Below, one piece after another: positions 6,212 to 55,381 of a stretch of 64,000 nucleotides of DNA (within the stretch, counting starts at the first letter, position 1; the number at the start of each line of letters is the position of its first letter). The stretch lies in assembly GCA_938074335.1 (NCBI GenBank), contig CALJEL010000023.1, positions 1,554 to 65,553 on the forward strand. The letters run 5' to 3'. This stretch comes from an uncultured bacterium. GTDB lineage: Bacteria > Nitrospirota > Thermodesulfovibrionia > Thermodesulfovibrionales > CALJEL01. A program made the position numbers and the translations under genes. Under the pieces are notes generated by a model. It ran no database searches, was not told the origin of the DNA, and saw nothing but the letters and a program-made list of their open reading frames with translations.

Positions 6212-6227
6212 TGGCATAGATATTGCT
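6212..6227 (+). promoter_or_regulatory. Sigma54-type -24/-12 promoter TGGCATAGATATTGCT
   Basis: GG-N10-GC spacing matches the TGGCAC-N5-TTGCW consensus. It lies about 60 nt upstream of the ATG at 6286. Confidence 0.6.
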
Positions 6228-6285
6228 TATTAATAATAGCTGCCACATGGTGGCACTTCAATCTATAATGAAAGGAGGTGCTAAG

Positions 6286-6942
6286 ATGAAAAAGGCATTA
6301 ATCATTGCCCTCTGTCTGGTCTTTGTTATTGCTGGAGTGGCGGTGGCAGGTATCAGGTATTCAAAGCATGACCTGAGCTCAAGCGGTGGTCAGAATACAA
6401 GGTCAACTAATGTGGATGAGGTCTGTGTATTCTGCCATACCCCACATGCCTCAAACACATCTATGACAGCAGCACCACTCTGGAACAGGAGTGACAATAG
6501 CACAACATGGTCAAATACAAATGCCTACACTTCACCTACTATGGATGGCACATCAACAGGCCCAAATAATGCAAACCCCATTTCAAAGGCATGCCTCAGC
6601 TGTCATGACGGTAATGTGGGAGATGAGACACTTGTAAATGGACCCGGCTCAGGTACAAATACTATTACTATCCAGTGGCAGAATGCCATTTACAGCACTG
6701 TGGCTAACCTCAACGACACCGCAGGCCTTACAAACGACCATCCAATAGGCTTGAATATGGCAGCAATTAGTGCGCTTGACAATGAAATCTATAATTCACC
6801 GCAGAATGCTAACCTCAGGCTCTTTAATGGCCTTGTTGAGTGTGCCACATGCCACAGCGTGCACAACAGTACAAACTATCAGCCATTCCTTGCAATGAGC
6901 AATGCAGGTTCTGCCATGTGCCTTGCATGCCACAACAAGTAA
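6286..6942 (+). CDS. Secreted tetrahaem c-type cytochrome (paralogue 1 of 4)
   Basis: AAAGGAGGTG precedes the ATG at 6286. The track start at 6223 is a TTG inside the promoter. Signal peptide MKKALIIALCLVFVIAGVAVAG. Four CXXCH motifs (CVFCH, CLSCH, CATCH, CLACH). Family motifs are KHDLS, APLWNR and DHPIG. Confidence 0.9.
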   Translation: MKKALIIALCLVFVIAGVAVAGIRYSKHDLSSSGGQNTRSTNVDEVCVFCHTPHASNTSMTAAPLWNRSDNSTTWSNTNAYTSPTMDGTSTGPNNANPISKACLSCHDGNVGDETLVNGPGSGTNTITIQWQNAIYSTVANLNDTAGLTNDHPIGLNMAAISALDNEIYNSPQNANLRLFNGLVECATCHSVHNSTNYQPFLAMSNAGSAMCLACHNK

Positions 6943-6958
6943 GAAAATTTTTTAAAAA

Positions 6959-6988
6959 GGGGTGAGAAAACTCACCCCTTTTTTATTT
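6959..6988 (+). terminator. Rho-independent terminator
   Basis: GGGGTGAG-aaaa-CTCACCCC forms a perfect 8-bp stem followed by TTTTTTATTT, 17 nt after the stop codon. Confidence 0.8.
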
Positions 6989-6998
6989 AATCAGGGTC

Positions 6999-7007
6999 TG
7001 CTATAAT
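6999..7007 (+). promoter_or_regulatory. Extended -10 element TGCTATAAT, 6 nt upstream of the ATG at 7014 (leaderless-type arrangement)
   Basis: TGnTATAAT is followed by ttcctt and then ATG. There is no Shine-Dalgarno sequence. Confidence 0.45.
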
Positions 7008-7013
7008 TTCCTT

Positions 7014-7649
7014 ATGAAAAAGGTTTCTTTTAAGATAATACTTTTGTTTTTGCTACATGTCTCAGCCTCTCATGCAGGGATTGATGGCTCAGGTCATGAC
7101 CTGAGACCTCCTCATAGCAAGGACCTTGCCTGTATTTACTGCCATCCACCCTATGGAGATGCTGGTTTAAATCAAAGATGGACCTCTGAGACCCGTTCAT
7201 GGATAGAACAAAATGGCAAGAAAAAGAAACCCCTTTTAAAGGCAGCAAGGATTTGCCTTGGCTGTCATGATGGAAATATGGCCATGGATTCACTTCTTAA
7301 TCTACCAGAGGTAAAGAGGATTACCATAAGGTCAAGAAGGTGGAAGGAGCTTGATGACTCAGGTTTCAAGGTCTATGGAAGGAGCAAATTCAAGGAGGAG
7401 GCAAGGATAATTAAGGTGGTAAACACTGACCAGGTCTATGATGCCACAGACCATCCTATAGGAATAAGGCTCAGTGATTCCTCTTATATAGATGAAGGGC
7501 TTTATAAAGAGCCAATCAATCCATCCTTGAGACTCTTTAAAGGATTTATTGAATGCTTTACCTGCCATTCTGTGCATAACACCACTGCCTACAGCCCCTT
7601 TCTTGTAAGCAGTGGTACTGAATTATGTCTTTCCTGTCACAGAAAATAA
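7014..7649 (+). CDS. Secreted tetrahaem c-type cytochrome (paralogue 2 of 4)
   Basis: It has a signal peptide and four CXXCH motifs (CIYCH, CLGCH, CFTCH, CLSCH). It shares GHDL, DHPIG and LRLFKGFIEC.TCHSVHN..PFL with 6286..6942. Confidence 0.88.
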   Translation: MKKVSFKIILLFLLHVSASHAGIDGSGHDLRPPHSKDLACIYCHPPYGDAGLNQRWTSETRSWIEQNGKKKKPLLKAARICLGCHDGNMAMDSLLNLPEVKRITIRSRRWKELDDSGFKVYGRSKFKEEARIIKVVNTDQVYDATDHPIGIRLSDSSYIDEGLYKEPINPSLRLFKGFIECFTCHSVHNTTAYSPFLVSSGTELCLSCHRK

Positions 7650-9301
7650 AGACAATTATAATAGTTATATTGCTAAGCCTCTTCTTTTTCCTATCCACAG
7701 GTACTGTAAGAGAAGGAGACCTCTTCTGGCATATAAAGACAGGTGAATGGATATGGCATAATAAGGCGATACCTTCAGAGGACCCCTTTACCTATACCTT
7801 TCAGAGATACGACCCTGTCAGGCCTGGCTACATGCGTCAGGAGATAGTGCTGAGGGGATACTGGCTTGGTCAGGTTTTTTATTACCTTGTCTATAGACTC
7901 TTCCAAATAGAAGGCATAATTGTATTCAGGGCATTAATGATAACCCTTGTTCTTTTGATACTTTATTTATTTACAAGGTCTCTTGGTGTCTCTTATGAAT
8001 TAAGTATTGCCTTTTTGATATTTCAGGGACTATGGTTCATGAATGCAGGTGACAGACCCCAGCTCTTCTCCTTTGTTATCTTTCCAGTTGTCCTTTTTCT
8101 TGTGGATTCCCTTAAAGGGGCACGGGATCCATCAAGGGCATTCCTACTTATTGCCCTCATGCTTTTATGGCCAAATCTTCATGGTGGTTATGTAACAGGC
8201 ATTGCTGTTATAGCCCTGTATCTTTTGGGAGTCCTTCTGAGGAGACCCTTTGATTTAAGGTCATGTATTATCTATGTGGGAGCCATATTAGTGACACTCC
8301 TCAATCCAAATACCTATAAAACACTCCTTGGAGTTATTCAAGAAATGAGCGTGGGTGTCCAGGCAAGATTTATTGCAGAAATGCTTTCACCCCTTGAGGT
8401 CTTTAAAGAAGGTTTTTACTATCCCACCTTCTGGCTCAGTCTTCTTATAACAGCAGTGGTTCTTCTGGTTGCACTTATTGAAAGGGTCAATAAAAAAGGT
8501 AGCTCCCTTACAGTTGAGAGGATAGCCATTTTGCTACTCTTTATATTTACAAGCTTGAGACACCAGAGGATGATTCACTTTTTTATGCTCAGTCTTCCCT
8601 TCATTGCCCTTGAGTTAGAGAGGCTTTTAAAGGACAAAAGGATGAATAAGATTGTCAAGAAATCCCTCTTGTTTCTGGGCATTGTGCTGATTTTTCTCGC
8701 TATAAACCCAAAGAATATCCTTAATGCAGACCTGAAGGAGTTATTTCCTGTTGGTTGCGTTAATTTTCTTAATGAGACCTCACCAGAAGGTAATCTCTTT
8801 AACTGGTCTGACTGGGGAGGCTATCTCATGCTTTATGCACCACAGTTCAAGGTCTTTCATGATGGCAGAAGGCTTATGGATGATGTGGAGATCAGCCATA
8901 ATGGGATTGTCAATGGCCTTAATACTCCTATTATGGGTATCCCTGCCTGGCGCGCCTATCTTGATTCATATAAAATAGAGGTCCTAGTGATACCACCTGT
9001 CCACCCACTATTTGGGCAGTTCACAGGACTTGTAAGGGAGCTTTATACTGACAGTGAATTCAGCCTTGTCTATGCAGATAAAAATTGCCTGATCTATCTC
9101 AGACGCGGAGGACCGAATGATCTACTTATTCATAAATACGAACTCCCAAAAGAACTTGGTATTATCAAGGCTATACAGAGGCTACACACCTACAGGACAG
9201 AGTCAGAGAGGCTCTCGAAGATAAGGCTCATAGCAACCCTATACAGACTTATAGGAAGGCATGAGGTAGCAAAGGAATATGAAAAGATGCTTGGACAATA
9301 A
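7625..9301 (+). CDS. Polytopic membrane protein, GT-C-like glycosyltransferase candidate (paralogue B of 3)
   Basis: Its start overlaps the cytochrome stop by 25 nt. Motifs are EGDLFWHIKTG (D codon at 7718-7720), DRPQLFSF, WPNLHGGY, LNPNTYK and SDWGGY-x8-KVFHDGR (8810-8866). Confidence 0.6.
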   Translation: MSFLSQKIKTIIIVILLSLFFFLSTGTVREGDLFWHIKTGEWIWHNKAIPSEDPFTYTFQRYDPVRPGYMRQEIVLRGYWLGQVFYYLVYRLFQIEGIIVFRALMITLVLLILYLFTRSLGVSYELSIAFLIFQGLWFMNAGDRPQLFSFVIFPVVLFLVDSLKGARDPSRAFLLIALMLLWPNLHGGYVTGIAVIALYLLGVLLRRPFDLRSCIIYVGAILVTLLNPNTYKTLLGVIQEMSVGVQARFIAEMLSPLEVFKEGFYYPTFWLSLLITAVVLLVALIERVNKKGSSLTVERIAILLLFIFTSLRHQRMIHFFMLSLPFIALELERLLKDKRMNKIVKKSLLFLGIVLIFLAINPKNILNADLKELFPVGCVNFLNETSPEGNLFNWSDWGGYLMLYAPQFKVFHDGRRLMDDVEISHNGIVNGLNTPIMGIPAWRAYLDSYKIEVLVIPPVHPLFGQFTGLVRELYTDSEFSLVYADKNCLIYLRRGGPNDLLIHKYELPKELGIIKAIQRLHTYRTESERLSKIRLIATLYRLIGRHEVAKEYEKMLGQ

Positions 9302-10820
9302 AGAGATACTCCTTATTATTGTCCTTTATTTATCCATAAACCTTCCTTTCATTGATTCCTATCCTCCCCTTGACTTGGTGGGTGATGAATCCTGGTATAT
9401 GAATTATTCAGTAAATCTTTTAAAGACAGGTTCACCATCAGGTACAATGTTCGTGAATACGCCATTTAATGAACTCACTCCATTTACAGCATGGTTTTAT
9501 AATGGCTTATTGAGCCTTTTTTTTCTGATCCTCGGAGCAGGAATAACTCAGGGAAGGTTTTTATCATTAATGGCTCAGATAGTTATCCTTTATTTTACCT
9601 ACAGAACAGGTTATGAGGTCTTTAATAAGAGGACAGGTATCCTTTCAGCCCTTCTGCTGGGGGGTTCTGTTTTCTTTGCCTTTGCACATCAGCTCAGACC
9701 CGAGGCTCTCTTTACTGCTTTAATGACCTTTTCTTTTTATCTATTCATAAGGTATTTAAGGGCCAGAAGACCAGCAATGATATTTCTTTCCTCTCTTACT
9801 GGTGGTCTCCTTATAGAAGTGCATCCTAATGGAGCGGTTTACCTTCTCTGCCTTCTTTTCCTTTATCTTTTATGGTTGCGAAGGGTCTTTCACAGAGATA
9901 CCCTATTTTTTTTAATGGGTCCCCTGATATCTTTTTTAATCTGGCTCAGCCTTAATTACCTTCCAGCCCCTTCATTCAGCTCTTTTAGGACAGTCCATCT
10001 TTCATATATGCCCTCTATAATGAAGGGACCAGGCTATTATCTTAAGAGCCTTTTAAATGCCCTGCTCGAAGACCCTGAGTTTTTGTTTAAAAGAATACCA
10101 CAAACCTTTATAAATAATTTTGACATAAGGCTATATCTCCTTGGAGGGATACTGGGACTTTCCTACTTCATCTTTAAGACTGAGGACAGAAGGAGCCTCT
10201 GGCTGATTCTATCAGGAGCAGCCTTTTTATGGATCTCTTCAATAATCCTTGGACTCGGTGTCTGTCAGCCTGTGTATTTTATTTATTTTATGCCCTTTTT
10301 TGCTATTACAGGCGCTGTAATAATTGAGAAGCTAATGAGAATGGGTGATAGCCTTAAAAAAGGCATAGGAGTACTACTGCTGTCTCTGATTATTACTGTA
10401 AATCTCTATGACCTGGTTGAGACGGGTATTTGGTCAAAAGAGATAAAAAAACAATATGACAGGGCATTGAAGGAGCTTTCTTCAGCACTGCCTGCTGGCT
10501 CAAGGGTGATGGGTATTACAAACTATTATCCTGTGCTTTATGATAGAGTGGGGTATTTTACCGTTTTATATGTCCAGAATAGCTGTCCTGACCTTGGTAA
10601 GTCCTTAAAGGGATTACACATAGATTATTTTATAAAGGATGAGGTGATAGAGCATATATTCCTGCAATGGTGCGGAAGTAGATACATTCAGTCTGTTGAT
10701 ACTTTTCTTTCTGAAGAGGCAGAATTATACAGGGTTATAAATATTGAAGGAGGCTATCCAAACTTTAATGCAAGGGGAAATTATATCAGGGAGATAAAGA
10801 TCTACAGGCTGAAGACCTGA
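9279..10820 (+). CDS. Polytopic membrane protein, ArnT/PMT-like GT-C glycosyltransferase candidate
   Basis: The 513-aa protein has more than 10 hydrophobic segments. The first loop carries LVGDESWYMNYS, a DE motif positioned as in ArnT/PMT-type enzymes. Its start overlaps the upstream gene by 23 nt. Confidence 0.55.
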   Translation: MKRCLDNKEILLIIVLYLSINLPFIDSYPPLDLVGDESWYMNYSVNLLKTGSPSGTMFVNTPFNELTPFTAWFYNGLLSLFFLILGAGITQGRFLSLMAQIVILYFTYRTGYEVFNKRTGILSALLLGGSVFFAFAHQLRPEALFTALMTFSFYLFIRYLRARRPAMIFLSSLTGGLLIEVHPNGAVYLLCLLFLYLLWLRRVFHRDTLFFLMGPLISFLIWLSLNYLPAPSFSSFRTVHLSYMPSIMKGPGYYLKSLLNALLEDPEFLFKRIPQTFINNFDIRLYLLGGILGLSYFIFKTEDRRSLWLILSGAAFLWISSIILGLGVCQPVYFIYFMPFFAITGAVIIEKLMRMGDSLKKGIGVLLLSLIITVNLYDLVETGIWSKEIKKQYDRALKELSSALPAGSRVMGITNYYPVLYDRVGYFTVLYVQNSCPDLGKSLKGLHIDYFIKDEVIEHIFLQWCGSRYIQSVDTFLSEEAELYRVINIEGGYPNFNARGNYIREIKIYRLKT

Positions 10821-13344: not shown

Positions 13345-13470
13345 TTCTTTAAACCGGGATTTAAATCCCTTTATTTTTTTGATTTCTTAAAAAGGGGTTC
13401 AAATGAGCTCATTTTAAAGGGCTTTAATGAAACGAGACCCTATAGAGGGTGCTTTTTAAATATTCAAAAT

Positions 13471-13508
13471 TGTGTGAAAAGACGCTATTAATTGTGCTAT
13501 TTCACACA
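13471..13508 (+). promoter_or_regulatory. Inverted repeat TGTGTGAAA-N20-TTTCACACA in the leader, just before the RBS
   Basis: The two 9-nt arms are perfectly complementary and end 2 nt before AAGGAGG (13511-13517). It could be an operator or an RNA hairpin that occludes the leader. Confidence 0.4.
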
Positions 13509-13523
13509 GAAAGGAGGTTATTT

Positions 13524-13784
13524 ATGGGAACAATAACCTATTATGTGAGGGATGGTAAGAATACCCTGAGGGGTATCAAATTGACCTTATGCTGTGAGGA
13601 GGACTTTCAATATTTGAAAAACTCGGGTGTATCAATGCTAAGGAGGCTCAGACTCAGGAGATTTCTTAAGGAGGCCATGTCCCAGGGAGTTAAGTTGAGT
13701 TACAGGGACCTGAGCCTGCTATTACTTGCCTCAAAGGCAACACTAAAGAGGGATTTAAAAGCTGATGCAATTCGGAAGGATTGA
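13524..13784 (+). CDS. Small putative DNA-binding protein, DUF1670-like (copy 1, lacks C-terminal tail)
   Basis: AAGGAGG lies 6 nt before the ATG at 13524. The sequence LRRLRLRRFLKEAMSQGVKLSYRDLSLLLLASKATLKRDL resembles the HTH-like core that I recall for the DUF1670 family. Confidence 0.45.
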   Translation: MGTITYYVRDGKNTLRGIKLTLCCEEDFQYLKNSGVSMLRRLRLRRFLKEAMSQGVKLSYRDLSLLLLASKATLKRDLKADAIRKD

Positions 13785-14118
13785 ATATTTCCTCAAGAAT
13801 GGCTCTGCCAGGAAAATTTTCCTGACAGTTGTAGGCCAGTCTGATGAGGAGGTTCTTAAAAGAGAGGGTCTGAGAGGACTCAGACTCAGGAGGATCCTCA
13901 GGCTTACAAGAGAGGCTGAGGAGCAAGGAGCCCTTTTAAGCTATGAAGACCTCTCTGCCCTTCTTCTTACATCAATTTCAACATTAAAAAGAGATATTGT
14001 TTATCTTGAGAGACTTGGCAATAAAGTGCCTTTAAAAGGAAGAAGAAAAGACAAAAATAAGATTATTGAAAGTATTCAATATGTGAAAGAAGCACAAAGG
14101 GATGTTACTGATTTATAA
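13765..14118 (+). CDS. Small putative DNA-binding protein, DUF1670-like (copy 2, full length)
   Basis: It is a tandem paralogue of copy 1 (LRGLRLRRILRLTREAEEQGALLSYEDLSALLLTSISTLKRDIVYLERLGNKVPLKGRRKD). It overlaps copy 1 by 20 nt in another frame. Confidence 0.45.
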   Translation: MQFGRIEYFLKNGSARKIFLTVVGQSDEEVLKREGLRGLRLRRILRLTREAEEQGALLSYEDLSALLLTSISTLKRDIVYLERLGNKVPLKGRRKDKNKIIESIQYVKEAQRDVTDL

Positions 14119-15997
14119 ACATAAATATCCTGTTATAATTGCAGTAAGCATATTATTGCTAATGGTAACATTTATTATGCCTACAACAATATATGCCAGA
14201 AGGGTATCCCTTCCAACAAAATATGTACTTTATGGTGTTGCAAGTCTTGAGTATGAAAAGGAATGGGTTTCTGACTCCAATATTTCAGAGGACTATTTCA
14301 CTCAGAACTATCAGCTTGGAATTACAGGCCCTATTATTGACCCAAGGCTTGTGACTTTTGATATAAATGGAACATTTACAGACAGGTCGAGCGATATAAA
14401 TAGTTCTTTAAAGGGATTTAATGCAACCCTAAGGTTATTAAATTTTGGGCTTGTAAAAAAAGAAAGATATAATTATCTTAATTACTTACCAAGACCTGTT
14501 GTCCTGAGATATTCAAGATACGATGGAAGCAATTTTGAGAGCACATCCTATGGTATAAGCACAGGATATTACCTGCCTTTTAATATTAATCTTTTTGGCG
14601 GTAATAGGCTCTTAAGTTTCAGAAGTATATTTGCCCAACCCCAAAGATTAAAATTTAACCAGCAGATAAATAGCTCGCAGAATGAAAATGCTAATGGTAA
14701 TGCTAACGGTAATGCCAATGCCAACAATGGCCAGCAACAGTCTCAGCAGATAAAAAAGATTCCATATGAAGGAATAAATATACCCTTCCCGGTAATAAAT
14801 TTTGATTTTGACAGAAATATATATAAATCTGAAGATTATAAAACTGTCACAACAGTTTATGATACAAGGATGAGATTTGGAAGCAAAAAATATGAATACA
14901 CCCTCGGATATTTTTTTAGTCTTAATGAGGATAGTCGTAATCCTTATGATAGAGAACAGAATGTCTTTACAATAGATACAAAGAATAAACTTTCGGCCTG
15001 GGTGTTAGAAAACAGGTTCAGAAAGGAAAAGACTGCAGAAATAAATACTTTTAATTCCCATAGTCTTGACACAAGATTATACCGCTACTTCCAGAAAGAT
15101 TTAGACACCTCTTATTCTCTCTCTTTTGGAGGTGGCTATAGACAAACTGAAGGATATACTGGAAACTCGGAAAGTAAGAATATTGGTGCAGGTGGCACGA
15201 TGAGCAAAAAGCTTTCACCCTATCTTAGGTCTAATACTGGTCTTTTTATTAATTATCAGGAAACTTCTAATAATTCATCTGACAACAGGGATTCTACTTA
15301 TAATCTAAATATTTCAGAGACTCTCAATTATAGTGGGTTTAGAGGTATATTATTTACAGGTAGTTTAAATGGAGGATATTCAGATGAGGTTGTACCTTAT
15401 GGAGCAAGCTTGGGGTTTATAACTACAAAATGGAGGAGATTAAATCTGAGCGGTCATTATCAATATGATGCCTTTAAGGATAAGGATAATGATACCTATA
15501 CTCAAAAACATCAGTTAAGATATAATGCATCAGCTATGCTAAGGCAAAATATGTCAATTAATGCAGGGGTTACTAATTCTATTGCCCTTATTGATGATAA
15601 ATATCATGATATTTCTTACTCAGAAAGAACACAAGGTTTTGATCTACATTTAAAATGGTTTTATAGAAGACATAATATTGATATATCAGGTAATATCACA
15701 AGAACAACCACCACAAATCCAGCCACCTCAACCCCAGAATCAAATATATATGGCTACAGGATACTTTATAATACCTCCTTTATTAGGAGAACCCTCTATT
15801 CAATTTATTTTACCCAAGATATTGACAAAACAAATGATAAATCTGTTGCCGACCTTAAGACAGCCTTTTCATGGTATTATGGAAAGTTTATGTTTACAGC
15901 AGATTATGAGCTTAAAAATACTAAGGATAATCAGTCTGATGTCACAGAACACAGAATCTTTTTAAAAGTAAGCAGGTATTTCAGAAAGATTTTATAA
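14102..15997 (+). CDS. Large predicted outer-membrane beta-barrel protein
   Basis: Signal peptide ends ..IMPTTIYA. Over about 600 aa it shows many alternating amphipathic strands rich in Y, N, S, T and G (YTLGYFFSL, YSLSFGGGYRQ, LNLSGHYQYDAF, FDLHLKWFY, FMFTADYELK, RIFLKVSRYF). No cysteines or haem motifs. Confidence 0.6.
   Translation: MLLIYKHKYPVIIAVSILLLMVTFIMPTTIYARRVSLPTKYVLYGVASLEYEKEWVSDSNISEDYFTQNYQLGITGPIIDPRLVTFDINGTFTDRSSDINSSLKGFNATLRLLNFGLVKKERYNYLNYLPRPVVLRYSRYDGSNFESTSYGISTGYYLPFNINLFGGNRLLSFRSIFAQPQRLKFNQQINSSQNENANGNANGNANANNGQQQSQQIKKIPYEGINIPFPVINFDFDRNIYKSEDYKTVTTVYDTRMRFGSKKYEYTLGYFFSLNEDSRNPYDREQNVFTIDTKNKLSAWVLENRFRKEKTAEINTFNSHSLDTRLYRYFQKDLDTSYSLSFGGGYRQTEGYTGNSESKNIGAGGTMSKKLSPYLRSNTGLFINYQETSNNSSDNRDSTYNLNISETLNYSGFRGILFTGSLNGGYSDEVVPYGASLGFITTKWRRLNLSGHYQYDAFKDKDNDTYTQKHQLRYNASAMLRQNMSINAGVTNSIALIDDKYHDISYSERTQGFDLHLKWFYRRHNIDISGNITRTTTTNPATSTPESNIYGYRILYNTSFIRRTLYSIYFTQDIDKTNDKSVADLKTAFSWYYGKFMFTADYELKNTKDNQSDVTEHRIFLKVSRYFRKIL
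14681..14749 (+). repeat. Low-complexity coding repeat (NENANGNANGNANANNGQQQSQQ) inside the OMP gene
   Basis: Imperfect tandem aat-gct/gcc-aat-ggt units followed by a CAG/CAA run. Confidence 0.7.
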
Positions 15998-16009
15998 CGT
16001 GGAGGAAAG

Positions 16010-16972
16010 ATGAAAAAGTTTTTAAGATGTGGATTCCTTATCACAATTTTGCTGTACAGTTATGGAGTCTTTGGCTCTGACCAGACTGTAGCTGTGGTAA
16101 ATGGAGTGACTTTAACAGAGTCTGATCTTCAAAGGATTATTAATGAGTTGCTTCCAGCTACTTTTTATCATCAGACAATAACATCTGAAAAAAAGGCAGA
16201 GCTCAGGAAAAAGGCAATTGACGAGCTTATAAAAAGGGAGCTTTATTATCAGGAGGCAAAAAGGGTGGGGATAAAGGTTGACAAATCAGAAATTAACCAG
16301 GGACTTGAGAGTATTAAGAAGAGATTTAAGTCCAAGAAGGAATATAAAGATGCCCTCAAGCAGGCAGGCATAACAGAGGATGACCTGAAGAAAGACATAG
16401 AGCGGAATCTATTAATCCAGAAGTTTTATCAGAAAGAGGTGATTGAGAAGTCAAAGGTGTCTGATGAATATCTTAAGGACTACTATGAAAAGAACAAAAA
16501 GGATTTCTTGAGACCGGAGGCGGTGCACATAAGACATATTCTTATAAAGATTGAACCTACTGCAACAGAAGAACAGAAGAAGGAAAAGAAAAGACAGGCA
16601 AAGGAGATCCTCAGTAGGGCAAGACAGGGAGAAGACTTTGGAATGCTTGCCTATAATTATTCTGCTGATGACTGGCGTGTAAAAGGAGGAGACCTTGGTC
16701 TGATTCACAGGGGTAGACTCCTTCCAGAACTTGAGGAAGTTGCCTTTAAACTAAAGCCTGGAGAGATAAGCGACCTTATAGAGACAATTTATGGTTTTCA
16801 TATAATAAGATTAGAGGAGAAACTTCCTCCAACACAGTTAAGTTTTGATGAGATAAAGGATAATTTAAAAAAAGAAATGGAGAAGAAAAAACAGAGGGAT
16901 CTTGAAGAAAATCTAATTAAGCTCCTGAAAGACAAGAGCGAGATAAAGATAGTAGAGAGTAGTAATGACTGA
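16010..16972 (+). CDS. Periplasmic SurA/PpiC-type peptidyl-prolyl isomerase chaperone
   Basis: It has a signal peptide and a canonical parvulin core (VHIRHILIK...GEDFGMLAYNYSADDWRVKGGDLGLIHRGRLLPELEEVAFKLKPGEISDLIETIYGFHIIRL). Confidence 0.85.
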   Translation: MKKFLRCGFLITILLYSYGVFGSDQTVAVVNGVTLTESDLQRIINELLPATFYHQTITSEKKAELRKKAIDELIKRELYYQEAKRVGIKVDKSEINQGLESIKKRFKSKKEYKDALKQAGITEDDLKKDIERNLLIQKFYQKEVIEKSKVSDEYLKDYYEKNKKDFLRPEAVHIRHILIKIEPTATEEQKKEKKRQAKEILSRARQGEDFGMLAYNYSADDWRVKGGDLGLIHRGRLLPELEEVAFKLKPGEISDLIETIYGFHIIRLEEKLPPTQLSFDEIKDNLKKEMEKKKQRDLEENLIKLLKDKSEIKIVESSND

Positions 16973-17046
16973 TTATTTTTCAGAAAACGAGGAATATAAG
17001 GTATCGTGCTTTTGATTAAAATAATTGAGAAGATAGGAGGCTGCTG

Positions 17047-18078
17047 ATGTCCCCTTTCCTCCGCTCACTCCCCATGTGGCTTCTGTTTTTTTTGTTCGGT
17101 TGTGCTCCTTCCTTTACCATTTCTCGAATTGATACAACCGCCTCAGGCGGGATTTTATGGCCGGGAGAGCCAGAAAAACCAAGGATACGGTATTTATGGA
17201 GTTTACAACAGGTGAACTATATTGAAGGTAAAAGTATTAAAGACATTATTCTGGGTTATGATAATCCTTATGAACCGAGGGAGTCACCTATCCTGCTGAG
17301 ACCACAAGGAGTATATGTTGATCAGAAAAGATATTATATAGCAGACCCGGGTGCTGGAAGGGTTACGGTAATCGATAGAAAAAATATGAAGACCTTTCAA
17401 ATTATTTATGCTGGTGCAGAAGAGCTTCAGTATCCGATAAGTGTAGTTTCTGATAAAGATGGTTATATATATATATCAGATCCTGAATTAAGGAGGGTAA
17501 TAAAGTATAGGTTTGATGGTAACTTTATAGCATATTTTAAAGGAGAATTCTTAAGACCCTCCGGGCTTGCTATTGACAGATTGCGAGATATTATATATGT
17601 AACTGATACCCTTTCTCATAAAATTTATATATACAACTCCTCTGGAGAGAGGCTTGGCGAGATTGGAAGGCGTGGAGAAGGGGATGGTGAATTCAATTAT
17701 CCAGGTTACCTTTTTGTTGACCGTAATGGCAATCTCTATGTGAGTGATTCTCTTAATTTCAGGATACAGATATTTGGTCCTGATGGGAAATTTATAAAGA
17801 AATTCGGTGAACCAGGTGATGCCTATCATACCCTTGAAAAACCAAAGGGAGTAGCAGTTGACACAGAGGGACATATCTATGTGGTTGATGCTGGAAAAGA
17901 TATGGTGAAGATATTTGACAGGGATGGAAGGCTATTATTATTCTTTGGTGAGAAGGGGCATGAGTATGGAAAATTTTATCTTCCAGCAGGTATATTTATT
18001 GATATAGAGAATATTATCTATGTGGCTGATACAATCAACATGAGAATCCAGGCATTTCAATTTCTTGGAGGTGATTAA
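17047..18078 (+). CDS. NHL-repeat six-bladed beta-propeller lipoprotein
   Basis: GGAGG lies 7 nt before the ATG, and the lipobox is FLFG-C. Six NHL blades (YYIADPGAGRVTVID, IYISDPELRRVIKY, IYVTDTLSHKIYIY, LYVSDSLNFRIQIF, IYVVDAGKDMVKIFD, IYVADTINMRIQAF). Confidence 0.85.
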   Translation: MSPFLRSLPMWLLFFLFGCAPSFTISRIDTTASGGILWPGEPEKPRIRYLWSLQQVNYIEGKSIKDIILGYDNPYEPRESPILLRPQGVYVDQKRYYIADPGAGRVTVIDRKNMKTFQIIYAGAEELQYPISVVSDKDGYIYISDPELRRVIKYRFDGNFIAYFKGEFLRPSGLAIDRLRDIIYVTDTLSHKIYIYNSSGERLGEIGRRGEGDGEFNYPGYLFVDRNGNLYVSDSLNFRIQIFGPDGKFIKKFGEPGDAYHTLEKPKGVAVDTEGHIYVVDAGKDMVKIFDRDGRLLLFFGEKGHEYGKFYLPAGIFIDIENIIYVADTINMRIQAFQFLGGD

Positions 18079-18852
18079 ATGGATATAAAAAGAATAGGGG
18101 TTATCCCTATTTTTCTTCTCTCAATTTTAACATTAACCTTTGCTCAGGGCCCTGGCAATTTAACAGCACCTGGTAATAAACATAACCTTTCGTCAACTCA
18201 GACAGGTACCACAATACGGGCTATAAGTGAAACCCAGATATGCGTTTTTTGTCATACACCTCACAGGGCAACGGTGGCACCTCTCTGGAACAGGAGTCTT
18301 TCAACAGCAACTTACACAATGCCAACAAGGACAACCACACAACTTACTACCCCGCTTAATCCACCAGATGGAGATTCAAGGTTGTGTTTGAGCTGTCATG
18401 ATGGCACAATTCCAGTAGGACAGGTCCAGAACCTCTGGGGCCAGCAGGCAAACATAGCAATGAGTGGAAGTTTGTGCCCAGGACCCAACTGCTTTGGTAC
18501 TGATCTCAGTGGTCACCATCTCATATCTATTGAATATAATACCCAGCTTGCTATTGACAAGGCAGCTCAGTGCCCAGGTGTTAGCTACAGGTTAAGAAAT
18601 CCATTACCTCTTCCTCCTCTTTTACAGAAAACAGAAAGTGTCTATCCCTGTGATTATAACGCAAACCCAAATGGTTGCAGGGATCCAAATAATCCTCATT
18701 ATGGCGTTCAGTGCACATCCTGTCATGACCCCCATTATGATCCGACACCAGGTGTAACAAAGTTCTTAAGATACTCATCTGGTCAACAGGGCAACTGGCC
18801 ATGGAATAATTACGATACCCTCTGTCTGCAATGTCATGAGGCATGCCCGTAG
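18079..18852 (+). CDS. Secreted tetrahaem c-type cytochrome (paralogue 3 of 4)
   Basis: It has a signal peptide and four CXXCH motifs (CVFCH, CLSCH, CTSCH, CLQCH), plus the KHNLS and APLWNR motifs. It starts 1 nt after the NHL gene stop. Confidence 0.88.
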   Translation: MDIKRIGVIPIFLLSILTLTFAQGPGNLTAPGNKHNLSSTQTGTTIRAISETQICVFCHTPHRATVAPLWNRSLSTATYTMPTRTTTQLTTPLNPPDGDSRLCLSCHDGTIPVGQVQNLWGQQANIAMSGSLCPGPNCFGTDLSGHHLISIEYNTQLAIDKAAQCPGVSYRLRNPLPLPPLLQKTESVYPCDYNANPNGCRDPNNPHYGVQCTSCHDPHYDPTPGVTKFLRYSSGQQGNWPWNNYDTLCLQCHEACP

Positions 18853-18867
18853 GAGGTCAATAAGGTA

Positions 18868-19926
18868 ATGGCAGATATAAGGTTTAACATGAGAAAAGTT
18901 ATACTGGTTATCTTTTTTTTAGGATTGGCAACTGCGCTTTTTGCAGTAGAACCATCTCATCTTGATAAAATGAAGAACCCAGCAGGCTGTTCTGTATGCC
19001 ACACAGGTCATGGTATAAAGGGGAGTCCTACTTTGAGGTTTGATAAAAAGGAAATCTGTTTTGCCTGTCACAGCTCAAAAGGTAATCTTCCACCACAATT
19101 CAGGGCAAAGACTGACATGCTTTCGGTCTTTCAGAAAAGATACAGGCATCCTGTGATGGAAACCTCTCAGTATCACAATTCCTTTGAAGAACTGCCGGAG
19201 AAGGACATCTCAATACCAAGACATGTTGCCTGTCAGGACTGCCACAGGGTTCATGAATCCACTCCTCAGAAACCCTTGAGGAGGGTAAAAGGATATTCTG
19301 CCACGAAGGTCAGGAAGAAAGAGGCTGATGAAGAATATGAGGTCTGTTATCTTTGTCATGCAGACAGTGTGAATCGCCCACCACAGAGAAAGGATATCGC
19401 AGACCTCATGGATAGTCTGAATCCTTCTTATCATCCTGTTGAGGCAAGAGGGAAAAATGGAAGGGTCCCGAGTCTTATACCACCCTTGAATTCAAATAGC
19501 AAGATCCTCTGCACAGACTGTCATGGAAATAATGATCCCTTTGGTCCAAAAGGACCCCATGGTTCAGATTTTGAATATATCCTCAAGGCAAGGTATGAGA
19601 TGCGGGAAGGTCCTGAGTCCTATGATTCCTATGAATTGTGTTATAGCTGTCATGAGAGGCAGTCAATTATTGGAAATCAGAGTTTTCAAAAACATAAAGA
19701 GCATATAGTTTATCAACATATACCCTGCTCTGCCTGTCATGACAGTCATGGCTCAAAGATTAATCAACATCTTATTGATTTTAATCACCTATTTGTACTA
19801 CCCTTCCCATCACCTTCATATATTCCTTCTCCTCAAGGAAGACCGATCTGTTATCTCAGGTGCCATGTAGCGGGCAGGGATGTGGAGCATAATACACAAT
19901 TTTATAATGAAAGGAGATGGCCATGA
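18868..19926 (+). CDS. Secreted multihaem c-type cytochrome (7 CXXCH plus one C-x3-CH)
   Basis: It has a signal/anchor helix. CXXCH motifs are CSVCH, CFACH, CQDCH, CYLCH, CTDCH, CYSCH and CSACH, and CYLRCH lies near the C-terminus. Confidence 0.88.
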   Translation: MADIRFNMRKVILVIFFLGLATALFAVEPSHLDKMKNPAGCSVCHTGHGIKGSPTLRFDKKEICFACHSSKGNLPPQFRAKTDMLSVFQKRYRHPVMETSQYHNSFEELPEKDISIPRHVACQDCHRVHESTPQKPLRRVKGYSATKVRKKEADEEYEVCYLCHADSVNRPPQRKDIADLMDSLNPSYHPVEARGKNGRVPSLIPPLNSNSKILCTDCHGNNDPFGPKGPHGSDFEYILKARYEMREGPESYDSYELCYSCHERQSIIGNQSFQKHKEHIVYQHIPCSACHDSHGSKINQHLIDFNHLFVLPFPSPSYIPSPQGRPICYLRCHVAGRDVEHNTQFYNERRWP

Positions 19927-20790: not shown

Positions 20791-20802
20791 GTGATTTTAC
20801 AC
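20791..20802. promoter_or_regulatory. GTGATTTTACAC, a palindrome-like 12-mer 86 bp upstream of the sigma54 -24 element
   Basis: It has the same GTGWA-N2-TWCAC architecture as 6123 and 6147. Its reverse complement GTGTAAAATCAC differs at one base from the 12-mer at 55234-55245. Confidence 0.3.
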
Positions 20803-51568: not shown

Positions 51569-52789
51569 ATGCGTGAAAATTCGCAGCCCTGTGACAAAAA
51601 ATGGAAAAAGGTCGCTAAACTGACCTTATTATTTACATTTATCTTTGTTCTTACAGCCCTGATATCTGTACTTTCCCTGTATTATATCTTTGGTATTACC
51701 TCAAGTAATGCAGTTATTTATTTTGTGAAGAATACAGATGGCAGTCTTAAGGTTACAAATGACCTCAATTTTGATGAGGCAAACAGATTACTTTTTATGG
51801 TTGATGGTAGTTGCCTGTGGAGATTTGTTGAGGGGGTTGCCGCAGCAATATTAAAAAAATCCCTGATTGAGGTTACATGGAATAATGAAGATGGTAATGG
51901 AGTTATAAAGGAATACAGGCCTGATGGAACAAGATTCCTGATCATCCTTTCCAGATACTCAGAAACAGAGGGCAGACCAAGAGGGCTCTTCATCGGAGGT
52001 GACCTTCCCTATGGAGATGTAGATAGATGGCTTGACAGAAGCAGGAACAATACAGGCATAGCCTATTATGATGGGCAAAAATGGCAGCATATATGGTGTT
52101 CCATTAATGAAGCCATGACTATAAAGGGTCTTGATGACATCTCCATAGGGCCATGGCGCTGGAGATATCTCGGAAGCAGGGTCCTTAAGTCAACTGCTTC
52201 AGAGGTTATTCTTGAGAGCCTTCATGAACTTCATCTTGTAAGAAATTCTCTTCCCATACATCTTAAAATGAAAAGGATACTCTTGAAGAGGGCTGCCGCA
52301 GATTACATAGTTCTTAAGGTGGAAATAACCAATATAGGAAATTCGGTGGTATATTATAATTATTCCTTTGGAGATGAGCCCTGGGTGGGAGAATTTGGAA
52401 GCTCTCTTGGAGATGTGGGATGGACATCTGGAAAGGTTTACAGGTTTGAAGGTTATATTTCACCTCAAAAAAACAGGTTTGCCGGTATCTGGGATTATGG
52501 GAATGATGAGGCAGGCGAACCCCACAGATTTTCAAATTTTGCAAATTTTGTAGAATGGCTGGATAATCCTCCTACAGTTGTTTATTTCTCTAACAGTTTC
52601 ACAGAGGTGGATGAAAACAGGTTACTCAACAGCTTTGATAACAGGGTGATTAATCTTGTCTGGCTCTACCAGTCTCTTATGCCAGGTGAGACGAGGACAT
52701 ATACCCTTGCCCTTGGCATGGCAAGGCCTGAACCCCTTACAGGGCTTCCTTTAAAACCTGATGTTATTCTCGCACCAGCAGGCTCTTAA
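51569..52789 (+). CDS. Membrane-anchored protein of unknown function (paralogue X1)
   Basis: One N-terminal TM helix is followed by a soluble domain of about 350 aa. It shares GVIKEYRPDG, PRGLFIGGD, GDEPWVGEFGSSLGDVGW, VVYFSN and NRVINLVW with 53085..54227. Confidence 0.7.
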   Translation: MRENSQPCDKKWKKVAKLTLLFTFIFVLTALISVLSLYYIFGITSSNAVIYFVKNTDGSLKVTNDLNFDEANRLLFMVDGSCLWRFVEGVAAAILKKSLIEVTWNNEDGNGVIKEYRPDGTRFLIILSRYSETEGRPRGLFIGGDLPYGDVDRWLDRSRNNTGIAYYDGQKWQHIWCSINEAMTIKGLDDISIGPWRWRYLGSRVLKSTASEVILESLHELHLVRNSLPIHLKMKRILLKRAAADYIVLKVEITNIGNSVVYYNYSFGDEPWVGEFGSSLGDVGWTSGKVYRFEGYISPQKNRFAGIWDYGNDEAGEPHRFSNFANFVEWLDNPPTVVYFSNSFTEVDENRLLNSFDNRVINLVWLYQSLMPGETRTYTLALGMARPEPLTGLPLKPDVILAPAGS

Positions 52790-53051
52790 ATTTAAGGAGC
52801 AATTTGAAACTCCACCATCCAGAGGCTGCACCAAGGAAGGCAAAGAGGATGTGCAATAGTAGTGAAAGGATTTTTATGAAAAGATTCGCTGGGTTAACAG
52901 GCAGGCCTGTTAGAATCTCTATGTCCTTTCCTATTGATTCTTCAAGACCTGTCATAGGGAAAATCATCTCCATGCCTTTGAAGATTGCAAGGGCTGTAGC
53001 ACAGCCTGCTATAGAGGAGATTATATAGCCTTTTGTGGGGAATAATTTCAT
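52764..53051 (-). CDS. Possible small membrane protein (95 aa)
   Basis: Two or three hydrophobic segments. It occupies the gap between the two paralogues on the opposite strand. No homology recognised, and a competing 74-aa plus-strand ORF looks less protein-like. Confidence 0.3.
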   Translation of the reverse strand: MKLFPTKGYIISSIAGCATALAIFKGMEMIFPMTGLEESIGKDIEILTGLPVNPANLFIKILSLLLHILFAFLGAASGWWSFKLLLKFKSLLVRE

Positions 53052-53057
53052 GTCTGA

Positions 53058-53066
53058 TGTTATAAT
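53058..53066 (+). promoter_or_regulatory. Extended -10 element TGTTATAAT upstream of 53085
   Basis: TGnTATAAT lies 18 nt before the ATG, with AAGGA between them. Confidence 0.4.
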
Positions 53067-53084
53067 AACAAAAAGGATAAAAAA

Positions 53085-54227
53085 ATGAGAAGCTATTCAA
53101 TACTTAAAAAGGTTGCGATTTTTTCAGGTTTAACAATCCTTGGCATATTCATATTCTTCTATGTCCTTTTGAGATTTTTTCATTTCAGTACAGGTTCAGC
53201 AGCTGTTTATCTTTTGAAGGACTCCAGTGGATTAAGGCTTACCAATGATATCTCCTTTTATGAAATTGATTCCCTTGTCTTCAAGATAGACCTCACGAAG
53301 ATTTTTAACAGGATATTTGAGACATCAGCCATGGCTACGGATACACCACTACTGGATATAAGTTTTAATGCCTCTACAGGAAGGGGTGTTATAAAGGAAT
53401 TCAGACCCAATGGTTCAATGATAGAAATTGCACTTTCCAGGTTTGATGACAGGGATATAAAACCGCGTGGTTTAATAATAGGAGGAGATTTTCCTCCAGG
53501 TGATTCTGGCCTTAAAAGAGAGGCAAGCGGCATTGCCTTTAATGATGGAAAGAGATGGTATCACCTCTGGTGCAACGCCAATGAGGGCATAGCGCTAACT
53601 GGTGGGAATGTCTACGAGACAACAAAGTGGGAATATCTTGGAGGGAAGATAATTAAGAGAACCTTTCGGGAATTTATTGCAGAAAGTCTCCACAGGGCTG
53701 ATCTTGATGGTAATGGTGTCTTGATAAAACGCAGACTGGAGGTGATAGCAGGTAGAAATTATATAGACCTGATAATTGATATTAAAAATCTTTCAGAAAG
53801 GGTTTTGATGATAGATTATGCCTATGGAGATGAACCCTGGATAGGTGACTACGGAACAAGCTATGGAGATGTGGGCTGGTATCCTGGCGGCTTGATAATG
53901 AACGAAACATATATAGATCCTTTAAAATATAATTTAGCCGGATTCTGGGATGCCGGTAACACTTTAGCAGGAGAGGCGGGAGACTTTACTGGATTTGCTA
54001 ATTATGTGCAATGGCTCGGGAAACCCCCCACTATGGTGTATTTCTCCAATGATTTTTATTCAGTCAACTCCGGTAAACCTCTTTCAAGTCCTGAAAACAG
54101 GCTCATTAATATTGTCTGGAAAGGGATGGTGCTTGCCCCTGATGAGGTGGAGAGATTATATCTTAGAATTGGTTTTTCAACCGAGCCTGTCAGAGAACTT
54201 TCAGAACTGGTGAGACTGATAAAATGA
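53085..54227 (+). CDS. Membrane-anchored protein of unknown function (paralogue X2)
   Basis: One N-terminal TM helix. It shares GVIKEFRPNG, PRGLIIGGD, GDEPWIGDYGTSYGDVGW, MVYFSN and NRLINIVW with 51569..52789. Confidence 0.7.
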   Translation: MRSYSILKKVAIFSGLTILGIFIFFYVLLRFFHFSTGSAAVYLLKDSSGLRLTNDISFYEIDSLVFKIDLTKIFNRIFETSAMATDTPLLDISFNASTGRGVIKEFRPNGSMIEIALSRFDDRDIKPRGLIIGGDFPPGDSGLKREASGIAFNDGKRWYHLWCNANEGIALTGGNVYETTKWEYLGGKIIKRTFREFIAESLHRADLDGNGVLIKRRLEVIAGRNYIDLIIDIKNLSERVLMIDYAYGDEPWIGDYGTSYGDVGWYPGGLIMNETYIDPLKYNLAGFWDAGNTLAGEAGDFTGFANYVQWLGKPPTMVYFSNDFYSVNSGKPLSSPENRLINIVWKGMVLAPDEVERLYLRIGFSTEPVRELSELVRLIK

Positions 54228-55102
54228 AGAAGGGTTTCTTAATACTCTTTTCCCTGCCCTTGCTCATGATTGCCTGCTCCAGACCTGTTGCAGAGGTCAA
54301 TGGAGAGCCCATTAATAAAAAAGATTATCTAAGGGAATTAGAGGAGAGAAGGCTTTCAGCGGGTTCAGTAGTTGATGAGCTTACCCTTAAAAATATAGTT
54401 ATTGATTCCCTTATAGAGGAACATCTTATTCTCACTGAGGCAAAAAGAAGAAATATCAAGGTATCTCCTGAGGAGATAGAAAATAGATACAGGGGTTTTA
54501 AGTCTACCTTTCCCTCAGAGGATGAATTTAGAAAACACATAAAAAGACTTGGTCTTAATGAAGAGGCTTTAAAGAAAAGGCTTGAGGAAAAGATTATAAT
54601 TGACAAATTCATCATCTCCATGGCTGACCTTTTCAGCGTGAGCCTTGATGACATAAAAAAGACTTACGAGATTCAAAAACCTTTAAAGCACCCTGAGAGG
54701 GTCAGGATCTCCATGATTGAATTTACAGACAGGAAAAAGTCTGAGGATACCCTTGCTAATATCAAAAGAAAGGGTTTTGAGAATGTAATAAAGGAACTTA
54801 AAGATAACAGAGATATGGCAATCACCGGGCCTCAATGGGTTGATCTTTCCATTTTCCCGGTAGAGATACAGGATGAATTGAAGAGAGCGTCTTCTGGAAG
54901 TATACTTCCTTTTGAGAGAAAGGGTAGCTGGTATATCATTAAGATCTATGAAAAAAAGCCTGCTCAGTATAAGACCTTTGATGAGGCCAAGACAGAGATA
55001 ATGTTTAATCTTCTTCATGAAAAGAGGCTTTCAGCACTCCAGCAATGGCTGAAGGAGAAGAAGGCCAGTTCAAAGATCATTATCTATGCAGAGAGACTCT
55101 GA
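54224..55102 (+). CDS. SurA/PrsA-like lipoprotein chaperone with degenerate parvulin region
   Basis: The start overlaps the upstream stop as ATGA. The lipobox is LLMI-A-C. It has SurA-N-like helices and a C-terminal parvulin-like segment without canonical motifs. Confidence 0.6.
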   Translation: MKKGFLILFSLPLLMIACSRPVAEVNGEPINKKDYLRELEERRLSAGSVVDELTLKNIVIDSLIEEHLILTEAKRRNIKVSPEEIENRYRGFKSTFPSEDEFRKHIKRLGLNEEALKKRLEEKIIIDKFIISMADLFSVSLDDIKKTYEIQKPLKHPERVRISMIEFTDRKKSEDTLANIKRKGFENVIKELKDNRDMAITGPQWVDLSIFPVEIQDELKRASSGSILPFERKGSWYIIKIYEKKPAQYKTFDEAKTEIMFNLLHEKRLSALQQWLKEKKASSKIIIYAERL

Positions 55103-55233
55103 GACTTAGTAGCTGCCTCTATGCTCCACATAATTTTAAACCTCATTATAGTAATCCTCTATGCCTTATCCATTTATGAGATTAGAGGTGGATTAAGGTT
55201 TTTCATAGCAGGTCTTGTCTTGTGCCTATATTT

Positions 55234-55245
55234 GTGTAAAAACAC
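55234..55245. promoter_or_regulatory. GTGTAAAAACAC 12-mer, 121 bp upstream of the sigma54 -24 element
   Basis: It matches the reverse complement of the 20791-20802 site at 11 of 12 positions. Confidence 0.3.
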
Positions 55246-55365
55246 CCACTGCCTTGAGCAATCTCCCACATAATTTCAAGGTCTTTAAGATTAAAAACCT
55301 TTGAATTTTTTTAAAAAAAAATTATGGTTTTCAAGGGTTTAATTGCATTTTGAGTTTATTAAAAC

Positions 55366-55381
55366 TGGCATTATGTTTGCG
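55366..55381 (+). promoter_or_regulatory. Sigma54-type -24/-12 promoter TGGCATTATGTTTGCG
   Basis: GG-N10-GC spacing. It lies about 58 nt before the ATG at 55439, which has a GGGGAGG Shine-Dalgarno. Confidence 0.6.

Follow-up and report, generated by a model that had tools for sequence, protein, structure and literature searches.

We analysed a window of 64,000 nucleotides (nt) from contig CALJEL010000023.1 of an uncultured Nitrospirota bacterium (assembly GCA_938074335.1), which carries a multihaem cytochrome locus with six short intergenic elements, P1 to P6, resembling -24/-12 promoters of sigma-54 (RpoN). The product of the first tetrahaem cytochrome gene (6286-6942, 4 CXXCH motifs) matched over its full length both the OmcE subunit of Desulfuromonas soudanensis (PDB 9YUQ, E=4e-34) and OmcE of Geobacter sulfurreducens (PDB 7TFS, E=3.5e-27). 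The gene preceded by P3 (20008-20790, plus strand, 4 CXXCH) encodes a second such protein, with E=4.4e-18 to 9YUQ and E=1.3e-14 to 7TFS. Two other tetrahaem cytochromes of similar size (7014-7649 and 18079-18852, 4 CXXCH each) were classed with them by motif count and size, not by structure comparison. NHL beta-propeller genes lie at 3227-4372 and 17047-18078, and the window further encodes 13-haem and 7-haem cytochromes, three SurA-like peptidyl-prolyl isomerases (PPIases), many tetratricopeptide repeat (TPR) proteins, and glycosyltransferases of the GT2, GT4, and PMT_2 (GT39-like) types. The tetrahaem OmcE homologue, with multihaem cytochromes and NHL propellers nearby and a block of GT2/GT4/GT39 and TPR genes behind them, thus has the layout of an OmcE-type cluster. 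Our analyses suggest that P1-P6 are very probably functional sigma-54 promoters heading six units of this nanowire locus.

All six 16-mers, which a preliminary description of this DNA had proposed as sigma54-type promoters, were located on the plus strand (Table 1). Each contains TGGCA-N6-TTGC, departs from TGGCAC-N5-TTGCW by zero to two mismatches, and has its GG and GC exactly 10 nt apart within a match to YTGGCACG-N4-TTGCW. They match both the consensus drawn from 186 promoters (mrNrYTGGCACG-N4-TTGCWNNw) and the Geobacter consensus (TTGGCACGGTTTTTGCT), as quoted in Leang et al. 2009 (PMC2725144). Over both strands of the window, TGGCA-N6-TTGC occurred seven times where 0.66 occurrences were expected, and none of the dinucleotide shuffles reached seven; one of the seven, at 58934-58948 on the minus strand, falls within the coding sequence of folD and was taken as chance. 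According to a gene map built from the open reading frame (ORF) list and Pfam, intergenic DNA makes up approximately 4.1 kb (6.4% of the window), and it holds all six elements. The mean expected there was 0.042 (5000 dinucleotide shuffles of the intergenic segments), which gives a Poisson P(>=6) of approximately 8e-12. Furthermore, every element is on the sense strand relative to the next gene, with its 3' end 36-180 nt before the start codon, in agreement with the intergenic, coding-strand placement 37-195 nt before a start codon described previously. For P2, the distance was counted to the ATG at 13524, which is preceded by a strong ribosome-binding site (AAAGGAGG). The list of six is complete for the window, because a relaxed scan of every intergenic region (GG-N10-GC, <=5 mismatches to YTGGCACG-N4-TTGCW) gave no further credible site. 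A weak palindromic match at 56904 (AGGCAATAATATTGCC) was rejected, being a terminator-like hairpin.

Table 1. Elements, transcription units, and upstream features of the locus in window coordinates, with the elements at orthologous positions in related loci (L numbers) and the alignments concerned (A numbers)
Feature	Position	Strand	Sequence	Element end to start codon (nt)	Description	Orthologous elements
P1	6212..6227	+	TGGCATAGATATTGCT	58	-24/-12 element before the first OmcE-like tetrahaem cytochrome gene	L164:3915 TGGCACGGGATTTGCT; L165:3918 TGGCATATGCTTTGCT; 83-86 nt before the orthologous gene
P2	13329..13344	+	TGGCATACTCTTTGCT	179	Before the DUF1670 / SurA-like / NHL / cytochrome operon	L083:1523 AGGCATATTTCTTGCT, aligned (A5); sequence 5' of the L083 element does not align
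P3	19936..19951	+	TGGCACGGAAATTGCT	56	Perfect consensus; 10 nt past the stop codon of the 7-haem cytochrome gene	L083:9796 and L084:7630 TGGCACGGGAATTGCA; L085:2796 AGGCATGGAAATTGCA
P4	20888..20903	+	TGGCAAGGATTTTGCT	36	Before the 891-aa propeller / 40-CXXCH giant cytochrome / TPR / ResB-CcsA operon	L083:10741 and L084:8575 TGGCAAGAAACTTGCT; L085:3737 TGGCAAGATATTTGCT; L082:10670 CGGCATGTAATTTGCT
P5	51485..51500	+	TGGCATGATATTTGCT	68	5 nt past the stop codon of a SurA-like gene, before X1	L082:323 TGGCATAAATATTGCT; L167:6072 AGGCATAGATTTTGCT; L168:5851 TGGCACTAATTTTGCA
P6	55366..55381	+	TGGCATTATGTTTGCG	57	Before the two-CW gene	L002:2923 AGGCATAATGTTTGCA (conserved island, diverged spacer; A2); L082:9952 TGGTATGTTTTTTGCT
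P1 unit	6286..10820	+			OmcE homologue, terminator, second tetrahaem cytochrome, 558-aa membrane protein, PMT_2 (GT39-like) glycosyltransferase	
P2 operon leader	13354..13523	+			Approximately 170 nt, structured; two terminator-like hairpins and a long hairpin abutting the ribosome-binding site	
P2 operon	13524..19926	+			Two small DUF1670 helix-turn-helix (HTH)-like proteins, 631-aa protein without Pfam match, SurA-like PPIase, NHL propeller, OmcE-like tetrahaem cytochrome, 7-haem cytochrome	
P4 operon	20940..39993	+			Extent inferred from co-directional, tightly packed genes	
P5 operon	51569..55102	+			X1 (406 aa), 380-aa paralogue, SurA-like PPIase	
P6 gene	55439..55744	+			Two-CW domain protein, 101 aa, cysteine-rich, without signal peptide	
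Sigma-70-like promoter	6084..6111	+	TTGACA-16-TACAAT		Approximately 100 nt upstream of P1; 11/12 consensus matches; consensus match only	
P1 upstream palindromes	6122..6159		TGTGAATTTTCACT and TGTGAAATTTCACA		Centres approximately 84 and 60 nt upstream of P1; the two copies form a larger inverted repeat	
P4 upstream elements	20791..20823		GTGATTTTACAC (20791-20802) and palindrome TGACAAAATATGTCA (20809-20823)		Candidate upstream activating sequence (UAS) of P4	
P6 upstream palindrome	55234..55245		GTGTAAAAACAC		Approximately 126 nt upstream of P6; GTG-W6-CAC match	

Related loci were fetched with the two-CW protein encoded behind P6 (genomes), with the cytochrome 20008-20790 (metagenomes), and by exact-protein look-ups. 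An orthologous element was counted where GG and GC were intact, with <=2 mismatches and at an equivalent position. By this definition, 13 of the 16 orthologous upstream regions tested contain an element, the misses being L163, L166, and L169. The closest P1 orthologue, L163, is uninformative because its contig ends 49 nt upstream of the gene. Such matches have a background density of approximately 0.14 per kb-strand in the fetched loci, so that approximately 0.03 would be expected per region. Over 14 pairs of elements, GGCA and TTGC were identical at 110 of 112 positions (98%), compared with 32 of 70 (46%) for the five spacer positions. In alignments A2, A3, and A5, the element stands out as an island of identity inside otherwise diverged spacers. 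Blocks that are kept while the spacer drifts are the pattern expected of sigma-54 contacts.

The association was also found at the level of the gene family, in 80 metagenomic loci with homologues of the cytochrome 20008-20790 (mostly approximately 30% identical, locus GC 41-71%). A sense element lies within 350 nt upstream of the OmcE-like gene in 36 of these loci (45%), compared with an antisense element in two and 3.7 expected from the rest of the loci. Among the matches there are 32 different 16-mers, whose column counts recover TGGCAC/T-G-N4-TTGCW. In Desulfuromonadia (Desulfuromonas, Geoalkalibacter), elements precede the omcE homologue of canonical omcE clusters by 122 nt (TGGCATTCAGATTGCA, L170:6879) and by 157 nt (TGGCACGAAAAATGCT, L171:6844). 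The association of OmcE-like genes with sigma-54 elements is widespread and reaches across phyla, a modestly new generalisation.

For the two-CW gene, which the preliminary description had tied to the same regulon, the proposal stands in this lineage, where P6 has counterparts in L002 and L082, and does not carry over to two-CW genes in general. Only 2 of 80 two-CW loci of other genomes have an element, one of them being the nearest relative, and many of the loci belong to archaeal methanogens. A general sigma-54 dependence of two-CW genes was accordingly rejected, and these counts indicate a lineage-specific recruitment. Within the clade, a functional link is supported by L082, in which a two-CW gene with its own element is placed directly upstream of the P4-type operon. 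The P6 gene product belongs to NCBIfam NF045718 (E=2.8e-33, 114.2 bits against a cut-off of 35) and shows the N-C-W and C-W motifs with invariant cysteines (A1). Its closest genome match, 89% identical, is in the Thermodesulfovibrionales metagenome-assembled genome (MAG) L002. The other nearest genome matches to the window are in MAGs labelled 'Nitrospirae bacterium', and together these matches point to a Thermodesulfovibrionales-like member of the Nitrospirota. The wider family (L003-L081) occurs in methanogenic archaea (Methanospirillum, Methanoregula, and Methanosphaerula), in the cable bacteria Electrothrix, and in many anaerobic bacterial phyla. Its members are approximately 55-65% identical with an invariant N-C-W...C...C-W...C...C..C pattern, which is unusually conserved for a protein of approximately 100 aa without known function.

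The units behind the six elements encode the cytochromes together with their presumptive accessory proteins. Directly 3' of the first OmcE-like gene lies a strong intrinsic terminator (6954-6983) with a 13-bp stem (AAAAAGGGGTGAG...CTCACCCCTTTTT), an arrangement typical of highly expressed genes for filament major subunits, with attenuated read-through to accessory genes. The leader of the P2 operon is conserved in metagenome contig L083 (1548-1728; A5 and A10) and folds better than shuffled sequence (minimum free energy z-score -3.18). Its terminator-like hairpins are followed by T-runs and keep their pairing through sequence changes, the hairpin at the ribosome-binding site has a 9-bp stem (TGTGTGAAA...TTTCACACA), and half-sites related to GTGAAA / TTTCAC occur in it. 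Rfam gave no family for the leader or elsewhere in the window. Possible roles of this leader are those of attenuator, riboregulator, or autoregulatory operator. The operon opens with two adjacent, overlapping DUF1670 paralogues (13524-13784 and 13765-14118), which have a common HTH-like segment (LSY(R/E)DLS-LLL-S--TLKRD). Judged from this segment, the pair at the head of a putative sigma-54 operon is probably DNA-binding and a candidate for cluster-specific regulation.

The P4 operon encodes an 891-aa FG-GAP/BACON/propeller protein, a 2807-aa cytochrome, a spermidine-synthase-like protein, TPR proteins, and ResB and CcsA of System II cytochrome c maturation. Its second gene, the ORF 23624-32047, encodes this giant cytochrome, whose N-terminus resembles a signal peptide and which carries 40 CXXCH motifs; at the same place L082 has a 1261-aa multihaem counterpart. 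The first gene of the P5 operon, X1 (51569-52789), is 39% identical to its paralogue at 53085-54227, the next but one in the ORF list. X1 had no Pfam or NCBIfam match; its family comprises approximately 78 homologues without annotation, in Nitrospirae and Geobacteraceae MAGs and in glycosyltransferase or SurA-like contexts. An AlphaFold (AF2) model of X1 (pLDDT 92.8) consists of an N-terminal membrane helix and a beta-supersandwich, and Foldseek returned galactose mutarotase, the YidC P1 domain, and glycoside phosphorylase N-domains (E ~1e-7, TM 0.3-0.45). Because these matches are distant, the model offers a suggestion, namely that X1 may be a membrane-anchored periplasmic carbohydrate-binding protein.

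Other genes of the window lie between or behind these units. Between the cytochrome blocks, at 43049-48429, genes for three B12-binding radical SAM enzymes are interspersed among GT2 and GT4 genes, in an order that is syntenic in L166 and L167; the substrate of these enzymes may be a glycan or lipid associated with the nanowire apparatus. After the cluster, on the minus strand (56551-61539), lie panB, MTHFR with a C-terminal partner protein, folD, GTP cyclohydrolase I, and a fusion of CbiA and 5-formyltetrahydrofolate (5-formyl-THF) cyclo-ligase, a folate/one-carbon block consistent with a Wood-Ljungdahl-type anaerobe. An omptin-like barrel is encoded at 62629-63657.

Sigma-54 RNA polymerase binds GG at -24 and GC at -12 and stays there as a closed complex, which an AAA+ bacterial enhancer-binding protein (bEBP) opens by hydrolysing ATP. 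At P1-P6, a bEBP bound approximately 60-130 bp upstream would open the complex; since the complex stays closed until the bEBP acts, no transcription of a unit would be expected before its activator is switched on. Among 50 ORFs scanned with Pfam, none matched Sigma54_activat, the six frames of the window contained no GAFTGA or Walker-A signature, and tblastn of two partial Thermodesulfovibrio bEBP sequences against the window gave no match, in line with the earlier statement that no enhancer-binding AAA+ activator gene is visible there. The activator or activators would be encoded elsewhere in the genome. ORFs of 450-480 aa at 43-48 kb and 60 kb were considered as hidden bEBPs and rejected, as they encode the B12-binding radical SAM enzymes and the CbiA / 5-formyl-THF cyclo-ligase fusion. 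A bEBP gene beside related loci is rare, being found only in L135 and L136 among the cytochrome loci and only in L060 among the two-CW loci.

Candidate binding sites for such activators are the AT-rich GTG-W6-CAC palindromes upstream of P1, P4, and P6, together with a palindrome specific to P4 (TGACAAAAWATGTCA). GTG-W6-CAC has four matches in the window compared with 0.08 expected, all of them 60-130 nt upstream of P1 (two), P4, and P6, and was not found upstream of P2, P3, or P5. Without the requirement for an AT-rich spacer, GTG-N6-CAC was not enriched (13 matches, 7.6 expected), and neither was TGTGAAATTTCACA with <=3 mismatches over the whole window. At P1, the two GTGAA(A/T)TTTCAC palindromes lie between the sigma-70-like promoter and the element, and the P1 orthologues in L164 and L165 are likewise preceded by TTTCACA / GTGAAAT repeats. 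These palindromes are candidate UAS or, because the sigma-70-like promoter is just upstream of them, could be its operators, and tandem sigma-70 / sigma-54 control of P1 is possible from this layout. The DUF1670 proteins, to go by their HTH-like segment, could be alternative binders of the GTGAAA/TTTCAC palindromes. At P4, TGACAAAAWATGTCA is conserved in L083 and L085 (TGACAAAAAATGTC) and, in part, in L082 (A3). It occurs only once in the window and is unlike the GTGAAATTTCAC-type palindromes upstream of P1. Approximately 69 nt upstream of the P6 orthologue, L082 has GTGTCATTTCAC; the P6 palindrome is not strictly kept in L002. Because neither the P4 orthologues nor L002 conserve it, GTG-N6-CAC was rejected as a universal UAS. 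A further feature, an AT-rich inverted repeat (AAGGTCTTT...AAAAACCTT) with runs of T and A behind it, lies at 55275-55335, approximately 70-90 nt before P6. In L002 (~2850-2880; GGGTTTT...AAAACCC), bases of the repeat have changed but still pair. The repeat could terminate the P5 operon or be a site for an activator or an integration host factor (IHF)-type protein.

Several observations weigh against P1-P6 being functional sigma-54 promoters. The X1 orthologue in L166 has a variant (TGGCATAAAAATTGTA) with GT in place of GC at -12, and a distant X1 homologue in L169 (69% GC) is without an element. As the orthologous sites were found by motif scanning, the identity of GGCA and TTGC is partly ascertainment, and it is position and strand bias that constitute the independent evidence from orthologues. 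The 64 kb window, the sole part of the genome examined, is without a bEBP gene. The candidate UAS palindromes are not strictly conserved, as neither the P4 orthologues (L083-L085) nor the P6 orthologue in L002 is preceded by GTG-N6-CAC. Given the near-consensus sigma-70-like promoter 100 nt upstream of P1, sigma-54 is perhaps not the sole route of expression for that unit. Such a site would fit dual control, in which sigma-70 promoters account for most of the expression and the sigma-54 elements act as conditional boosts or as internal promoters in read-through transcripts. P3 and P5 also follow the stop codon of a co-directional gene by 5-10 nt, and no terminator intervenes, so that read-through into their units from upstream promoters is likely. 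However, no comparably good plus-strand sigma-70 site was found upstream of P2, P4, P5, or P6, and sigma-70-like matches in these regions were barely above those of shuffled sequence (55 vs 41 and 23 vs 19 expected). We consider dual control of this kind unlikely, and it would leave the sigma-54 elements functional. That the 16-mers are not promoters at all, having arisen by chance, as duplicated upstream remnants of paralogous cytochrome genes, or as sites of an unrelated factor, is very hard to credit. P1 and P3, which precede paralogous OmcE-like genes, could conceivably stem from the duplication of an upstream region, but four of the six elements stand before unrelated genes, and the flanks of the six have nothing in common beyond the -24/-12 positions. 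Chance is excluded by the shuffle statistics. Moreover, the element is asymmetric and sense-oriented, as in the family test (36 sense vs 2 antisense), and the positions conserved across orthologues while the spacer drifts are exactly those contacted by sigma-54. The assignment of P1-P6 as sigma-54 promoters, made in the preliminary description, thus holds on consensus geometry, intergenic enrichment, sense orientation, positional conservation, and family-wide association.

Because the promoter assignment holds on all sequence tests, the genes very probably belong to an RpoN regulon in the sigma-factor sense, and this part of the one-regulon proposal in the preliminary description stands. The stricter form, with one bEBP and one signal acting on all six promoters through a common upstream site, is doubtful. 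It would account for the confinement of GTG-W6-CAC to the regions upstream of P1, P4, and P6, for the GTGAAA / TTTCAC half-sites at the P1 orthologues, at the L082 orthologue of P6, and in the P2 leader, and for the one apparent purpose, an extracellular cytochrome apparatus, that the six units serve. Co-regulation by a single activator is unproven, however, since GTG-W6-CAC was not found at P2, P3, and P5, the P4 orthologues keep the different palindrome described above, and the P1 palindromes may equally be operators of the promoter at 6084-6111 or targets of the DUF1670 HTH proteins. The differences between the upstream elements make it somewhat more likely that two or more activators act on these promoters.

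If the operon inferences hold, sigma-54 dependence would extend to approximately 28 genes and 37 kb of the 64 kb window. Almost all products of these units are secreted, periplasmic, or envelope proteins, which fits the view that sigma-54 controls the cell exterior. Cytochrome nanowires underlie long-range extracellular electron transfer, and little is known of what switches their production on. If the 45% association of distant OmcE-like genes holds, expression of the nanowire subunit would generally be locked behind a sigma-54 activator, and the upstream palindromes offer a handle on the inducing signal. An OmcE homologue with a -24/-12 element could also serve as a cheap genomic marker for such clusters in uncultured Nitrospirota. 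X1, the 40-CXXCH giant cytochrome, and, in this lineage, the two-CW protein would be linked to one envelope programme. A bolder and rather improbable extension is that sigma-54 gating is an ancestral, cross-phylum hallmark of OmcE-type nanowires (Nitrospirota, Desulfuromonadia, and many uncultured lineages), to which this clade would have recruited the DUF1670 HTH proteins and the cytoplasmic, cysteine-rich two-CW protein as a redox/metal sensor. If so, nanowire production would be decided by a bEBP signalling pathway that could be traced from these promoters.

Control of this type is familiar from Geobacter, where the filament subunit gene pilA is gated by sigma-54 and a remote activator, PilR, and where the electron-transfer cytochrome operon cbcBA is reportedly under the control of sigma-54 and the bEBP BccR. 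As in sigma-54 filament control in Geobacter, the P1 gene combines a major-subunit gene with a strong terminator behind it. To our knowledge, the upstream palindromes of the present locus resemble no described activator site.

The closest known counterpart is the omcE locus of G. sulfurreducens, which likewise combines cytochromes, an NHL propeller, and the tetrahaem nanowire subunit OmcE, each unit having its own predicted -24/-12 element. Additional file 4 of Leang et al. 2009 lists PromScan RpoN sites before GSU0615-0616-0617 (cytochrome, cytochrome, and NHL repeat protein; score 89) and before GSU0618 omcE (score 84) (PMC2725144). The same kind of sigma-54 arrangement had thus been predicted earlier for Geobacter, and the regulatory principle is textbook. 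A separate promoter directly before the single-gene omcE unit, as at GSU0618, recurs here in P1 and P3. The Geobacter sites are PromScan predictions only, and in a strain over-expressing RpoN the expression of omcE changed only 1.26-fold (PMC2725144). The two loci differ in phylum (Nitrospirota here, Thermodesulfobacteriota for Geobacter) and in the number of OmcE paralogues, with four here (two by PDB match, two by CXXCH count and size) and one omcE in Geobacter. Furthermore, the present locus has additional putative sigma-54 units, namely the 40-CXXCH giant cytochrome with its ResB/CcsA operon, the X1 family, and the two-CW gene.

In gene content, the locus agrees with the OmcE clusters of Petersen et al. 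2025, in which multihaem cytochromes, beta-propellers, and OmcE are followed by GT2/GT4/GT39, methyltransferase-like, and TPR genes (bioRxiv 10.1101/2025.10.22.684050; PDB 9YUQ). The core of cytochromes, propellers, and OmcE and the glycosyltransferase/TPR block behind it are both present here. The large beta-barrel protein of those clusters was not identified in the window; candidates without a Pfam match, which were not modelled, are encoded at 7625-9301, 14102-15997, and 10786-12447. Beyond that cluster, the present locus includes SurA-like PPIases, B12-radical SAM enzymes, and System II maturation genes. Petersen et al. mention OmcE homologues in Nitrospirota; the word 'promoter' is absent from their text, and 'transcriptional regulators' appear only as a gene category within the clusters (10.1101/2025.10.22.684050).

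The findings also bear on the survey of Francke et al. 2011, according to which sigma-54 controls the bacterial exterior (PMC3162934). Its Additional file 1 lists RpoN (YP_002248082.1) and 14 bEBPs for the cultured relative Thermodesulfovibrio yellowstonii (PMC3162934). In accordance with that view, nearly all inferred targets in the window are exported or build the envelope (cytochrome filaments, chaperones, glycosylation-linked proteins, and cytochrome maturation). Cytochromes have no occurrence in the survey (PMC3162934), and, compared with it, cytochrome nanowires would add a class of targets to the exterior functions assigned to sigma-54.

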